Shown here in pieces: positions 3,329-8,696 of a DNA stretch of 21,672 bases. The position numbers and the translations under genes were made by a program. The notes beneath the pieces were generated by a model. That model was not told the origin of the DNA and did no database searches. It saw nothing but the letters and a program-made list of their open reading frames with translations. The stretch's first letter is position 1; each line of letters begins with the position of its first letter. This stretch comes from a virus (Duplodnaviria > Heunggongvirae > Uroviricota > Caudoviricetes): IMG/VR virus record IMGVR_UViG_637000261_000001; one strand, written 5' to 3'.

Positions 3329-3520
3329 ATGAAATCCATGGACAAAATTTCAACGGGCATTGCCTACGGCACCTCCGCCGGCAGTGCCGGCTACTGGTTT
3401 TTGCAGTGGTTGGATCAGGTCAGTCCATCACAGTGGGCTGCGATTGGTGTGCTGGGAAGTCTGCTTCTGGGGCTTCTGACTTATCTGACGAATCTGTATT
3501 TCAAAATAAGAGAAGATTGA
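3329..3520 (+). CDS. Phage 21-type class II holin (pinholin S21-like), C-terminal end replaced by IS600 insertion
   Basis: [30 protein letters not shown]... with dual Met1/Met4 starts and two predicted TM segments; RBS GGAGGTGAGG upstream. The stop codon TGA at 3518..3520 is the first three bases of the IS600 terminal repeat. Confidence 0.65.
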
Positions 3521-4002
3521 GGTAGCCTGAGTTTAACGGACACTCCTTCCTGAAATAGAATGGCATCAGAAGGAGCTAATAATGAGCAGAAAAAACCAAC
3601 GTTACTCTAAAGAGTTCAAAGCCGAAGCTGTCAGAACGGTTCTTGAAAATCAACTTTCGATCAGTGAAGGCGCTTCCCGATTATCCCTTCCTGAAGGCAC
3701 TTTAGGACAATGGGTTACCGCCGCCAGAAAAGGGCTCGGTACTCCTGGTTCCCGCACGGTGGCTGAACTGGAATCTGAAATTCTGCAACTGCGTAAGGCG
3801 TTAAATGAAGCTCGCCTTGAGCGAGATATATTAAAAAAGCAACAGCGTATTTTGCACAGGAGTCGCTGAAAAATACGCGTTAATCGAACAATGGCGACAA
3901 CAATTTCCCATTGAAGCGATGTGTCAGGTATTTGGTGTATCCAGGAGCGGTTATTACAACTGGGTACAGCATGAACCCTCAGACAGAAAACAAAGTGATG
4001 AG
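3518..4002 (+). mobile_element. IS600 (IS3 family) 5' part, interrupted at 4002/4003 by IS629
   Basis: Left end TGAGGTAGCCTGAGTTTAACGGACACTCC at 3518; colinear with the intact copy at 16915..18178 (reverse complement). Confidence 0.9.
3582..3869 (+). pseudogene. IS600 OrfA with a 1 bp deletion in the frameshift A-run (A6 instead of A7), giving an aberrant C-terminus
   Basis: Ends ...ILKKQQRILHRSR, whereas the intact copy (17812..18114) ends ...ILKKATAYFAQESLKNTR; TTAAAAAAGC at 3831..3840 versus TTAAAAAAAGC in copy 2. Confidence 0.8.
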
Positions 4003-4044
4003 TGAACCGCCCCGGGTTTCCTGGAGAGTGTTTTATCTGTGAAC

Positions 4045-4935
4045 TCAGGCTGCCAGATCATCGTTTCCGATGGAAGCATAATAAGCTTTTTCTGCTTCTG
4101 CCGGAGGGATGTGGCCCAGCCTTTCCAGCAATCGTCGATTATTATACCAGTCCACCCACGTGAGTGTGGCCAGTTCCACTTCTGCACGGTTTTTCCAGCT
4201 CTTACGGTGTATTACCTCCGCTTTGTAAAGACCATTGATGCTCTCCGCCATCGCGTTGTCATACGAGTCGCCTGTACTTCCTGTTGATGCCAGTAATCCG
4301 GCTTCCTTAAGCCGCTGTGTGTAGGCCAGCGATACATACTGAGAACCTTTATCACTGTGATGGACCGTGCCGGACGGTCGACGGGCCCATAACGCCTGCT
4401 CCAGAGCATCCAGCACGAATGTCGTTTCCATGGACGATGAGACCCGCCACCCCACGATGTATCCGGCAAACACATCAATAATGAACGCCACATAGACGAA
4501 GCCCTGCCATGTGCTGACGTAAGTAAAATCAGCCACCCACAGCTGGTCAGGTCGTTCTGCCACGAACTGACGGTTTACGCGGTCGCCTGCGGCAACGGCT
4601 TTCCGGCTGATGGTCGTACGGACCTTTTTACCCCGGAGAACACCGGCAAGTCCCATAACCGCCATGAGACGTGCCACAGTGCATCTGGCCACTCTGATAC
4701 CTTCCCGTAACAACTGACGCCAGACTTTACGCACACCGTATACCTGATGATTCCCATCGTATACGCGCAGTATCTCTTTCTTCAGCCAGTCATCGCGCTG
4801 CGCACGGGCACTGCGTTTATCAGGATGATGTCGCTGTTGCTGACAGTGGTAATACGTTGACGGGGCAATATGTAGTTCACTGCATACCGGTCCGACCCCG
4901 TACAGCTTACGCAGCTTATCCAGCAGTGGCATCAC
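4045..4935 (-). CDS. IS629 transposase OrfB
   Basis: 296 aa ORF identical to copy 3 OrfB. Confidence 0.9.
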
Positions 4936-5258
4936 TTTTTCCAGAGGCGGTCGAACTCCGCCTTCGCAAAATAAGCGGAAGCCTGGCGAAGGATATCGTT
5001 ACTGCGGCGCAGTTCACGATTTTCACGTTCCAGCTCTTTCAGACGCTGACGTTCAGCGGTGGTGAGCCCGCCATCACCGCCTCCGGTATCCCGCTCATGC
5101 TGGCGTACCCAGACACGCAGAGTCTCCGGTGTACAGCCAATCTTTGGGGCAATGGAACAAATTGCCGCCCACTGTGAGTCATATTCGCCCTGACTTTCCA
5201 GAACCATACGAATCGCCCTCTGACGGACTTCGGGGGAAAAACGAGTATTTTTAGTCAT
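4932..5258 (-). CDS. IS629 OrfA
   Basis: 108 aa [23 protein letters not shown]...; overlaps orfB in the -1 frame. Confidence 0.9.
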
Positions 5259-5312
5259 CCTGTTTACCTCTTTCTCAGGAAGTTTAGTCTCCAGGATTCC
5301 CGGGGCGGTTCA

Positions 5313-5556
5313 CACCATGAAAGCGCTGGAAATGGCATGGGAAACCCCGTGGTAAGCCCGGCGGGGTGATGTTCCACAGCGATCAGGGCAGTCATTATAC
5401 GAGCAGGCAGTTCCGGCAGTTATTGTGGCGATACCAGATCAGACAGAGTATGAGCCGGCGCGGAAACTGCTGGGATAACAGCCCAATGGAACGCTTCTTC
5501 AGGAGTCTGAAGAACGAATGGATGCCGGTGGTGGGTTACGTAAGCTTCAGCGAGGC
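5313..5556 (+). pseudogene. Internal fragment of an IS3-family transposase OrfB (ISEhe3-like), bounded by IS629 and IS1
   Basis: ...[50 protein letters not shown]... carries the DDE-region motifs; ends in the 9 bp CAGCGAGGC that recurs at 2440..2448. Confidence 0.5.
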
Positions 5557-5571
5557 GGTAATGACTCCAAC

Positions 5572-6269: not shown

Positions 6270-6363
6270 GCAAGCACCTTAAAATCACCATCATACACTA
6301 AATCAGTAAGTTGGCAGCATTACCCCATTGCTGGCATAAATTCAGTTTCGAATATTCAGTTAA

Positions 6364-6605
6364 TTAAAGTTCGTGTGCCATCTTGTCTTTTTCGGCACAA
6401 GCTGCACCGCAATATTTTCGTTTCTTTCTGGCAATCATGTTTCCATGCATATAAATAAGCTCGCCAGTAAAAGCTTTTTCAGGTAAAAACTGTTTATTGC
6501 AGAGATGGTAATCACATTGTATTAAATCCGGGTCACCTTTTTGCTGGAGAATTTTTCTGATTCTCCACAGCCATTTTTTAATCCCGGTATGACTGATGGT
6601 CTGCC
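6364..6605 (-). pseudogene. 3' fragment of an unknown gene with a Cys-rich (CxxxxC ... CxxxC) C-terminus, cut at 6605/6606 by the IS600 end
   Basis: ...LIQCDYHLCNKQFLPEKAFTGELIYMHGNMIARKKRKYCGAACAEKDKMAHEL-stop; the upstream part of the track ORF 6364..6621 is IS600 sequence. Confidence 0.2.
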
Positions 6606-7386
6606 TGAGGTGTACTGGCAATAGCGGACACTACCATTTGTTCTTTTTTTAAGCAGCCATCTGATGATATTTTTCCCTGAAGGCTGCCGGGGAGATATTC
6701 CCCAGACGAGAGTGACGACGCTGACGATTGTAGAAAATCTCAATGTATTCCCGTATTACTGAGATGGCTTCATCCCGGTTATTAAAACGATAGTGGCTCA
6801 GGCTCTCATTTTTCAGCGTTCCCCAGAAGCTTTCCATCGGAGCGTTGTCGTAACAGTGACCTTTACGCGACATTGATGTTTTCAGACCAGACTGCTCCTG
6901 TATGACCCGGTAATCGTATGCGCAGTACTGTGAACCTCGATCAGAGTGGTGGATTAGCCCGGCAGGTGGGCGCTGGCTCCTGAGCGCCATAAACAGGGCT
7001 TTACCTGTCAGCTCTTTTGTCATGCGCTCTCCCATGGCGTAGCCGACAATTTCGCACGTATAAACATCTTTGATGCCAGCGAGGTACAACCATCCCTCCT
7101 GTGTGGCAACATACGTCAGGTCCGCCACCCAGACCTGATTTGGTGCTGTAGGAGCGAACGTCTGGTTCAGCAGATTTGGCGCAACTGGCAGATTGTGGTT
7201 CGGGTTCGTAGTCGCTCTGAACTTGCGTTTCTGCTTACAGCGTAGCCTTAGCTCCTTACGAAGACGTGCCAGTCGGTCACGACCAACGATGATGCCATTC
7301 TCTGCCAGCTCCGTCTGGAGCCGCCGGGTTCCATATGTTTCGCGAGTGCGGATATGTGCCACCTTAATCTCCAGTTTTAGCCGCTC
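6606..7386 (-). mobile_element. IS600 3' part (orfB 3' portion plus right terminal repeat), inverted relative to the 5' part at 3518..4002
   Basis: Terminal repeat TGAGGTGTACTGGCAATAGCGG at 6606; the junction with IS629 at 7386/7387 carries CTC, the complement of the GAG at 4000..4002. Confidence 0.85.
6649..7386 (-). pseudogene. IS600 OrfB, 5'-truncated fragment
   Basis: Matches residues ...ERLKLEIKVAHIRTRETYGTRRLQ...YHQMAA of the intact OrfB at 16958..17776. Confidence 0.85.
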
Positions 7387-7440
7387 TGAACCGCCCCGGG
7401 AATCCTGGAGACTAAACTCCCTGAGAAAGAGGTAAACAGG

Positions 7441-7767
7441 ATGACTAAAAATACTCGTTTTTCCCCCGAAGTCCGTCAGAGGGCGATTCGTATGGTTCTG
7501 GAAAGTCAGGGCGAATATGACTCACAGTGGGCGGCAATTTGTTCCATTGCCCCAAAGATTGGCTGTACACCGGAGACTCTGCGTGTCTGGGTACGCCAGC
7601 ATGAGCGGGATACCGGAGGCGGTGATGGCGGGCTCACCACCGCTGAACGTCAGCGTCTGAAAGAGCTGGAACGTGAAAATCGTGAACTGCGCCGCAGTAA
7701 CGATATCCTTCGCCAGGCTTCCGCTTATTTTGCGAAGGCGGAGTTCGACCGCCTCTGGAAAAAGTGA
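7441..7767 (+). CDS. IS629 OrfA
   Basis: 108 aa, identical to copy 2 OrfA. Confidence 0.9.
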
Positions 7768-8654
7768 TGCCACTGCTGGATAAGCTGCGTAAGCTGTACG
7801 GGGTCGGACCGGTATGCAGTGAACTACATATTGCCCCGTCAACGTATTACCACTGTCAGCAACAGCGACATCATCCTGATAAACGCAGTGCCCGTGCGCA
7901 GCGCGATGACTGGCTGAAGAAAGAGATACTGCGCGTATACGATGGGAATCATCAGGTATACGGTGTGCGTAAAGTCTGGCGTCAGTTGTTACGGGAAGGT
8001 ATCAGAGTGGCCAGATGCACTGTGGCACGTCTCATGGCGGTTATGGGACTTGCCGGTGTTCTCCGGGGTAAAAAGGTCCGTACGACCATCAGCCGGAAAG
8101 CCGTTGCCGCAGGCGACCGCGTAAACCGTCAGTTCGTGGCAGAACGACCTGACCAGCTGTGGGTGGCTGATTTTACTTACGTCAGCACATGGCAGGGCTT
8201 CGTCTATGTGGCGTTCATTATTGATGTGTTTGCCGGATACATCGTGGGGTGGCGGGTCTCATCGTCCATGGAAACGACATTCGTGCTGGATGCTCTGGAG
8301 CAGGCGTTATGGGCCCGTCGACCGTCCGGCACGGTCCATCACAGTGATAAAGGTTCTCAGTATGTATCGCTGGCCTACACACAGCGGCTTAAGGAAGCCG
8401 GATTACTGGCATCAACAGGAAGTACAGGCGACTCGTATGACAACGCGATGGCGGAGAGCATCAATGGTCTTTACAAAGCGGAGGTAATACACCGTAAGAG
8501 CTGGAAAAACCGTGCAGAAGTGGAACTGGCCACACTCACGTGGGTGGACTGGTATAATAATCGACGATTGCTGGAAAGGCTGGGCCACATCCCTCCGGCA
8601 GAAGCAGAAAAAGCTTATTATGCTTCCATCGGAAACGATGATCTGGCAGCCTGA
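7764..8654 (+). CDS. IS629 transposase OrfB
   Basis: 296 aa; starts GTG 7764 / ATG 7767, overlapping the orfA stop. Confidence 0.9.
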
Positions 8655-8696
8655 GTTCACAGATAAAACACTCTCCAGGAAACCCGGGGCGGTTCA

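Follow-up and report, generated by a model that had tools for sequence, protein, structure and literature searches.

One copy of IS600 in the chromosome of Shigella boydii Sb227 (CP000036.1) is divided between two inverted copies of IS629, and we attribute this arrangement, with a probability of about 0.8, to the insertion of IS629 into IS600 followed by a flip through homologous recombination, the third and last in a set of nested inversions. The series would have included a simple insertion of IS629 at nt 484 to 486 of IS600, in the opposite orientation and with duplication of the triplet GAG. A second IS629 would have come to lie about 2 kb away, inverted relative to the first, with an IS911 fragment on one side and a truncated transglycosylase gene on the other. 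The 2,074-bp segment 5313..7386 would then have been flipped by RecA-type homologous recombination across these 1.3-kb inverted repeats, and the flip would have carried the 3' part of IS600, turned around, to the far IS629 copy. The nested inversions would have occurred in the order IS600 × IS600, IS1 × IS1, and IS629 × IS629. Homologous recombination rather than transposase was probably the agent of the flip. Coordinates refer to the window, i.e., the whole stretch of 21,672 nt that was analyzed, which contains a decayed, lambdoid, ipaH-carrying prophage adjoining ybhA-modABC-gal.

Anatomy of the split IS600 and the IS629 copies

For comparison with the split copy, we took as reference an intact IS600 in the same window (16915..18178, minus strand); its length (1264 bp), terminal repeats, own 3-bp duplication (CAA on both sides), and 99.3% identity to an element annotated as "IS600 transposase" in AP026762.1 place it in IS600 of the IS3 family. 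The 5' part of the split copy (3518..4002, plus strand) corresponds to nt 1 to 486 of this reference, ends in GAG, and equals it save for one A absent from the A7 run (A6 instead of A7). The 3' part (6606..7386, minus strand) is 100% identical to it over nt 484 to 1264. The element is broken at one internal site, and the two parts overlap by exactly 3 bp, at window positions 17693..17695 of the full copy. Read directly, the junction triplets are reverse complements, with GAG at 4000..4002 and CTC, which is GAG in the orientation of IS600, at 7384..7386. The chance that two unrelated breaks would overlap by exactly 3 bp is roughly 1 in 1264, an argument that is somewhat weakened because the site appears to be a hot spot for IS629 (see below). 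A truncated IS600 OrfB was rejected as a marker of the junction, as it is also called on intact copies and is hence nonspecific.

Each IS600 part adjoins a different IS629 copy, and the two copies form inverted 1310-bp repeats. Copy A (4003..5312, minus strand) faces the IS600 5' part with its right end and an IS911 fragment with its left end, and copy B (7387..8696, plus strand) faces the IS600 3' part with its left end. Both have the length of about 1310 bp and the TG...CA terminal inverted repeats of IS629 (termini TGAACCGCCCCGGG... and ...GGTTCA, the two ends agreeing at 23 of their 25 outermost bases), and the nucleotide identity to the element that AP026762.1 labels "IS629 transposase OrfB" is 97.3% over all 1310 bp. 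Two overlapping ORFs, orfA (7441..7767) and orfB (7764..8654), are present, and precomputed Pfam matches place HTH_Tnp_1 on the former and HTH_21, rve, and rve_3 on the latter, as expected of an IS629 orfA with a helix-turn-helix and an orfB with a DDE integrase core. The GAG common to both IS600 parts agrees with the 3- to 4-bp target duplications of IS629 (PMC3271280).

Copies A and B differ by a single mismatch, at IS629 position 33 (T at window position 5280 and C at 7419). They represent two widely occurring IS629 alleles, each of which recurs without change at other sites as well as in other genomes, and this fits two separate insertions followed by recombination. Since just 33 bp separate the sole difference from the inner ends, the crossover is not locatable. 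The coordinates in the earlier note hold to the base with one exception: the inverted interval 5313..7386, which it gave as about 3.4 kb, measures 2,074 bp, and one IS629 copy must be included to arrive at 3.4 kb.

The window also holds a third IS629, copy C (1..930, plus strand; nt 381 to 1310, cut by the window edge), which lies inside a different IS911 beside the prophage integrase. In relatives, it has an ACC duplication on both sides, and its right flank in Sb227 lacks 2 bp of ACC. This copy went unmentioned in the earlier note, as did two IS1 copies (1673..2439 and 5557..6324) and three IS911 fragments, the first of which (931..1334, minus strand) is nt 1 to 404, the 5' part of the IS911 beside the integrase.

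An older inversion and reconstruction of the ancestral order

The two IS1 copies record an inversion of their own. Copy 1 (767 bp, minus strand) has a left flank from one ancestral IS1 and a right flank from the other, and its junction J6 (u|IS1) is shared with relatives; copy 2 measures 768 bp and is also on the minus strand. The 9-bp IS1 target duplication CAGCGAGGC is split in IS911. One half, at 2440..2448, opens the stretch 2440..3517 (plus strand), which consists of IS911 nt 1097 to 1249 (2440..2596) and then prophage DNA up to the IS600-interrupted holin gene. The other half, at 5548..5556, forms the last 9 bp of the IS911 fragment 5313..5556 (plus strand; nt 863 to 1105). This split duplication marks the IS1 flip, and because the IS1 copies are now direct repeats, the IS1 flip predates the IS629 flip. 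Beyond copy 2 lies prophage DNA with a ydaE-like ORF (6325..6605, minus strand), which natively flanks IS600 on the right in relatives (junctions J9 and J10). Beyond IS629 copy B lies a phage gene for a lytic transglycosylase, truncated by that copy to its 3' half (8697..9707, plus strand; 332 of 673 aa).

We flipped back 5313..7386, then flipped back the older IS1 × IS1 inversion, and aligned the result to UAUO01000003.1. Reconstructed positions 1 to 3501 correspond to 8757 to 12260 of that contig, the 1310-bp IS629 comes next, and positions 4812 to 7386 correspond to 12258 to 14826, so that the blocks overlap on the contig by the 3 bp of the target duplication. The reconstruction is collinear with UAUO01000003.1 but for two differences. 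The first is IS629 itself, simply inserted into IS600 with duplication of 3 bp; collinearity after the flips are undone bears out the single insertion proposed in the earlier note. Its further proposal, insertion followed by homologous recombination between the inverted IS629 copies, gains from the same collinearity and from A and B being distinct alleles. The second difference is an IS629 that replaces 7,632 bp, a gap spanning IS911 nt 1 to 862 through the 5' half of the transglycosylase gene. The remaining flanks of the IS629 pair, CAC at 5313..5315 (reverse complement, GTG) and ATC at 8697..8699, do not match, as had been observed, because one IS629 stands in place of these 7,632 bp. The flanks agree with an inversion by recombination: GAG and CTC pair crosswise, and the gap accounts for the other pair. 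The earlier note had read the unmatched flanks as a sign of separate insertion. The two alleles fit this, but the explanation is incomplete, as the 7,632-bp gap also borders the second copy, which presumably arose by an insertion of its own.

About 10 relatives have an unbroken copy of this IS600 at the split site, so that both the IS629 insertion and the flip are derived features of Sb227. In CP182558.1, UAUO01000003.1, and CP011511.1, a single intact IS600 is bounded by the holin|IS600 and IS600|ydaE junctions. The expectation that related strains would show both orientations was not borne out: junctions J1, J3, and J4 are confined to Sb227, J2 recurs in one further draft contig, and a second assembly supporting either orientation is absent. 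No genome among the relatives searched carries the uninverted IS600::IS629 with the IS629 orientation of Sb227, and an exact junction scan of a species-representative genome collection gave zero matches. Protein look-ups with the junction-specific 69-aa IS911 fragment returned Sb227 alone; those with the 332-aa truncated transglycosylase were set aside, as they returned Sb227 together with strains in which point mutations disrupt the gene. A plasmid search with the 2,576-bp reconstructed IS600::IS629 was likewise discarded, its full-coverage matches being IS600 and IS629 side by side, not nested.

Alternative readings

It is quite unlikely that the 2,074-bp segment was simply misoriented in the 2005 Sanger assembly, or comes from a mixed population, with a plain nested IS600::IS629 as the major form. 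The orientation is not fixed by the sequence, for the sole A/B difference moves together with the inner flanks. J1, J3, and J4 are restricted to Sb227, and the repeats are not bridged by any independent assembly. However, Sb227 is a finished genome, and the paired clone ends used for such a genome normally bridge 1.3 kb; several long assemblies independently confirm the neighboring rearrangements.

We regard as very unlikely an intramolecular transposition in one step, whereby an IS629 between the IS911 fragment and the transglycosylase gene attacked GAG in the nearby IS600 and a single event yielded the copy, the inversion, and the split duplication. A matched, inverted flank on two inverted IS copies beside a split target is the pattern seen here, and for IS26 and Tn4401 such a pattern is assigned to intramolecular replicative transposition in trans (PMC4471558). 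The route needs one event fewer, and neither A nor B was seen without the other in any relative found. Yet IS629 belongs to the IS3 family, whose copy-out-paste-in transposition via a circular copy yields simple insertions (bioRxiv 10.1101/2023.06.07.543989), so that a one-step inversion is not a predicted product. It should also leave identical copies, as in IS26-like replicative events of a replicative family; A and B differ at position 33, each matching alleles elsewhere, and two pre-existing alleles argue against a transpositional origin of the inversion. Moreover, simple nested insertions at the same IS600 site exist.

IS629-type elements have struck this exact site (IS600 nt 484 to 486) at least twice independently, which suggests that it may be a hot spot for IS629 insertion. 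Because a hot spot is probable, the identical break points are weaker proof of a single insertion. A match in Escherichia coli C4 (H83), considered as a further break at the site, is merely an IS600 sequence variant. Site-specific attack on nt 484 to 486 coupled to one-step copying and inversion on the same molecule is very doubtful; direct support attaches only to its weaker half, the sequence-specific hot spot. The possible hot spot is of modest interest for transposon target choice.

Independent strikes at one site also bear on a highly improbable reading in which IS629 struck two separate IS600 copies at the hot spot and later rearrangements juxtaposed the 5' part of one and the 3' part of the other. 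The holin and ydaE flanks do belong to different IS600 copies in CP162080.1-type genomes, but more events are needed, as two further IS600 parts would have to be lost, and we found no short path from that arrangement. A direct derivation of Sb227 from it was rejected, since its IS1 copies stand in direct orientation and a single event cannot yield both recombinant junctions. By contrast, the single IS600 between holin and ydaE of the UAUO type gives Sb227 exactly after two flips. A composite transposon has a like layout (IS629, 2 kb, IS629 inverted) but would share a duplication that is absent at both the outer (GAG, ATC) and the inner (CAC, CTC) flanks, so the unit did not transpose as a whole.

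Comparison with known systems

The favored history, insertion of IS629 followed by recombinational inversion, is of an ordinary, well-understood, and already known type. It offers a worked example of how swapped target duplications record a rearrangement history, here with three nested inversions and three IS families. Where IS flanks do not match in such regions, they usually point to additional recombination or deletion. In older assemblies, long reads should be used to check which way a short segment between identical inverted IS copies is oriented.

Inversions mediated by IS629, IS600, and IS1 have been reported for Shigella (PMC1550401, PMC8072062). There, too, inverted copies of these elements bracket the flipped DNA in a prophage or island setting, and nested inversion and re-inversion are described, as here. 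The segments in those reports range from >5 kb to hundreds of kb, whereas that of Sb227 is 2 kb, lies within IS debris, and hits no intact gene. IS copies that lack duplications mark recombination or adjacent deletion (PMC11708052), and the second IS629 copy, with its unmatched flanks and 7.6-kb gap, is comparable; that study observed such events in an evolution experiment, whereas the cause in Sb227 is deduced from comparison with relatives. The IS26/Tn4401 case (PMC4471558) has the same end product, namely, two inverted IS copies, a split IS target (there ISSwi1), and a duplication inverted at each copy. It differs in that IS26 and Tn3-family elements are replicative, whereas IS629 is an IS3-family copy-out-paste-in element, represented here by different alleles.

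Layout of the region

The window corresponds to the Shigella boydii Sb227 chromosome (CP000036.1) from about position 644152, with its positions 1..20414 matching 298..20711 of the Sb227 database locus (L005) at 100%. Its setting is a decayed lambdoid prophage adjoining an integrase gene and the ybhA-modABC-gal genes, with an ipaH gene at the window's right edge. Comparison of the window with itself and with IS references gave the element order. A copy of IS629 cut by the window edge (IS629-C; 1..930, plus strand) is followed by IS911 nt 1-404 (931..1334, minus), a stretch of prophage DNA here termed u (1335..1672), a first IS1 copy (1673..2439, minus), IS911 nt 1097-1249 (2440..2596, plus), and phage DNA ending in a holin gene (2597..3517, plus). 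Next come IS600 nt 1-486 (3518..4002, plus), IS629-A (4003..5312, minus), IS911 nt 863-1105 (5313..5556, plus), a second IS1 copy (5557..6324, minus), ydaE-like DNA termed v (6325..6605), IS600 nt 484-1264 (6606..7386, minus), IS629-B (7387..8696, plus), and the 3' half of a lytic transglycosylase gene (8697 onward, plus). An intact IS600 lies farther on (16915..18178, minus).

Several elements show peculiarities of their own. The first IS1 copy has 767 rather than 768 bp, with one T fewer near its right end (about 2436), and the IS911 3' fragment at 2440..2596 is 95.6% identical to IS911, with a 4-bp length difference. IS629-C lies within IS911, where relatives have an ACC duplication (left flank, L013); the right-hand ACC copy (931..933) is 2 bp short in Sb227 (…GGTTCA followed by CACAGG versus …GGTTCA followed by ACCACAGG), and the element has 5 differences from the same-site allele in CP011511.1. 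An IS66-family element within 10738..14401, which has a transposase gene broken into two ORFs and adjoins an IS2-type element, is duplicated in relatives, some of which have an IS629 inserted in it.

A split IS600 adjoining two IS629 copies

The earlier note proposed that IS629 inserted into IS600 and that recombination between two inverted IS629 copies then inverted the intervening segment. Comparison with the full IS600 copy and direct reading bore out all of its coordinates except the size of that segment, put at 3.4 kb: 5313..7386 is 2,074 bp, and 3.4 kb counts one IS629 copy in. Laid on the full copy, the two IS600 parts share exactly 3 bp, GAG (nt 484-486), placing the break at one internal site, and the junction triplets are reverse complements (GAG at 4000..4002, CTC at 7384..7386). 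IS629-A has its right end against the 5' part, whereas IS629-B meets the 3' part with its left end, as expected from one insertion opposite to the IS600 orientation.

Both IS629 copies are 1310 bp long and differ solely at IS629 position 33 (T or C). Terminal repeats and ORF structure with Pfam domains are consistent with the IS3 family, and identities to the copies annotated under these names in AP026762.1 are 97.3% for IS629 and 99.3% for IS600. At about 3833..3838, a run used for programmed frameshifting is A6 in the split IS600 versus A7 in the full copy; this distribution is reversed in relatives, and the difference may reflect homopolymer slippage, gene conversion, or sequencing error.

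Comparison with relatives and reconstruction

In all of the approximately twenty complete or long Shigella assemblies with the same prophage that we compared, the IS600 adjoining the holin gene is intact. A single intact IS600 between the holin gene and ydaE, thus with both outer flanks of the split copy, is present in CP182558.1, UAUO01000003.1, and CP011511.1. Three of the four junctions around IS629-A and IS629-B (J1, J3, and J4) were seen in Sb227 only, and J2 also in one further draft contig. The draft contig AMJX01000023.1 has the junction of IS629 with the IS600 3' part and the ydaE-IS1-IS911 order as in Sb227, but we give it little weight because it runs across several repeats and has a plasmid mob gene joined on the far side of IS629. 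That small-plasmid gene (locus L030, 1..525) meets the right end of IS629, whose left end faces the IS600 3' part just like its Sb227 counterpart. The triplet beside IS629 (GAT) is also the one present in Sb227, and the join reflects either another arrangement in that strain or a chimera across the repeat.

Flipping back 5313..7386 and then the segment between the IS1 copies yielded a sequence collinear with UAUO01000003.1. Reconstructed positions 1-3501 match 8757-12260 of that contig and are followed by a 1310-bp IS629; positions 4812-7386 match 12258-14826, the duplication appearing as the 3-bp overlap 12258-12260. A second IS629 follows, and 8697 onward matches 22459 onward. The whole region is thus derivable by two flips, a simple insertion of IS629, and the replacement by another IS629 of 7,632 bp that in this contig reach from IS911 nt 862 to midway through the transglycosylase gene. 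The DNA missing here, which may have been either deleted or relocated within Sb227, holds IS911 nt 1-862, the ydaT/cro/repressor genes, two IS600 copies, a pRha gene, and the transglycosylase 5' half. The second IS629 indeed has unmatched flanks, CAC at 5313 (reverse complement GTG) versus ATC at 8697, but the separate insertion invoked for this is incomplete on its own, since the gap supplies a further cause: either two IS629 copies in direct orientation recombined or DNA next to the element was deleted, as is usual where duplications are absent (PMC11708052).

Older inversions by IS1 and IS600

The flanks of the Sb227 IS1 copies are exchanged relative to every relative: these have IS911-IS1-IS911 with a 9-bp duplication, CAGCGAGGC, plus v-IS1-u, whereas Sb227 has u-IS1-IS911 and IS911-IS1-v. 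The IS911::IS1 insertion is split over two direct IS1 copies (1673..2448 and 5548..6324), with one CAGCGAGGC at 5548..5556 and the other at 2440..2448. This split duplication records an older IS1 x IS1 inversion, later re-inverted in part by the IS629 flip; the IS1 flip must have come first because the IS1 copies are now direct repeats. A GGC duplication is intact around the pRha/ydaE IS600 in CP162080.1-type genomes only, so the holin-IS600-ydaE copy is itself the product of a still earlier IS600 x IS600 inversion. The region thereby comprises three inversions nested in one another, each by a different IS family (IS600, IS1, and IS629). The recombinant nature of the holin/ydaE IS600 emerged on comparing L011 (7703..8965) with L017 (7703..8965) and L009 (6357..7620); this inversion divides two strain groups, and other strains have still other IS600 flank combinations.

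Mechanism

After correction of the segment size, of how the second copy arose, and of the nested context, the proposed history is supported. IS629 would have inserted into IS600 in the opposite orientation, duplicating GAG at nt 484-486, and homologous recombination with a second, inverted IS629 copy would then have flipped 5313..7386 (probability about 0.8). A wrongly oriented segment in the 2005 assembly, or a mixed population, is improbable but compatible with the sequence alone: we found no independent assembly spanning IS629-A or IS629-B, and the sole difference between the two moves together with their inner flanks. One intramolecular transposition event in trans, which makes such a split, inverted duplication, as documented for IS26 and Tn4401 (PMC4471558), fits the final structure equally but is improbable, because it would have yielded two identical copies, whereas IS629-A and IS629-B are different alleles, either of which occurs without change at further sites and in further genomes, among them simple insertions that have duplications of their own, and because IS3-family elements such as IS629 move by copy-out-paste-in through a circular copy, giving simple insertions (bioRxiv 10.1101/2023.06.07.543989).

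A probable insertion hot spot in IS600

IS600 nt 484-486 is occupied elsewhere by IS629-type elements in the other orientation. In S. boydii CP011511.1, a 99.9%-identical IS629 has its right end against GAG and the IS600 3' part (locus L027, 5976/5977); an IS629 relative of 94.7% identity is intact within IS600 in three E. coli chromosomes, with GAG on each side (locus L033, 1701..1703 and 3014..3016); and an E. coli plasmid has the same right-hand junction (locus L034, 3012/3013). Since recombination within an IS leaves the end facing a given flank unchanged, these cases and Sb227, which come from unrelated hosts, show that the same phosphodiester bonds were hit independently at least twice, and probably three times, and the site is probably a hot spot. 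Close by, IS600 contains the motif CTGGAGATTAA, which is similar to CTGGAGACTAA in the left end of IS629. No IS629 hot spot was reported in a survey of O157 genomes (PMC3271280), and the literature searched makes no mention of one within IS600. A hot spot slightly weakens the argument from one break point to one event; the flank evidence and the reconstruction are independent of that argument.

Relation to known systems

Inversions mediated by IS629, IS600, and IS1, nested ones included, are established in Shigella genomes (PMC1550401, PMC8072062), and the flipped segment contains only IS fragments and one small prophage ORF. The Sb227 rearrangement belongs to a type of event already on record and is of little interest. 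Its nested events by these three families are like those in the Shigella genomes, and its split, inverted duplication is the same as that left by in-trans transposition of Tn4401 and IS26.
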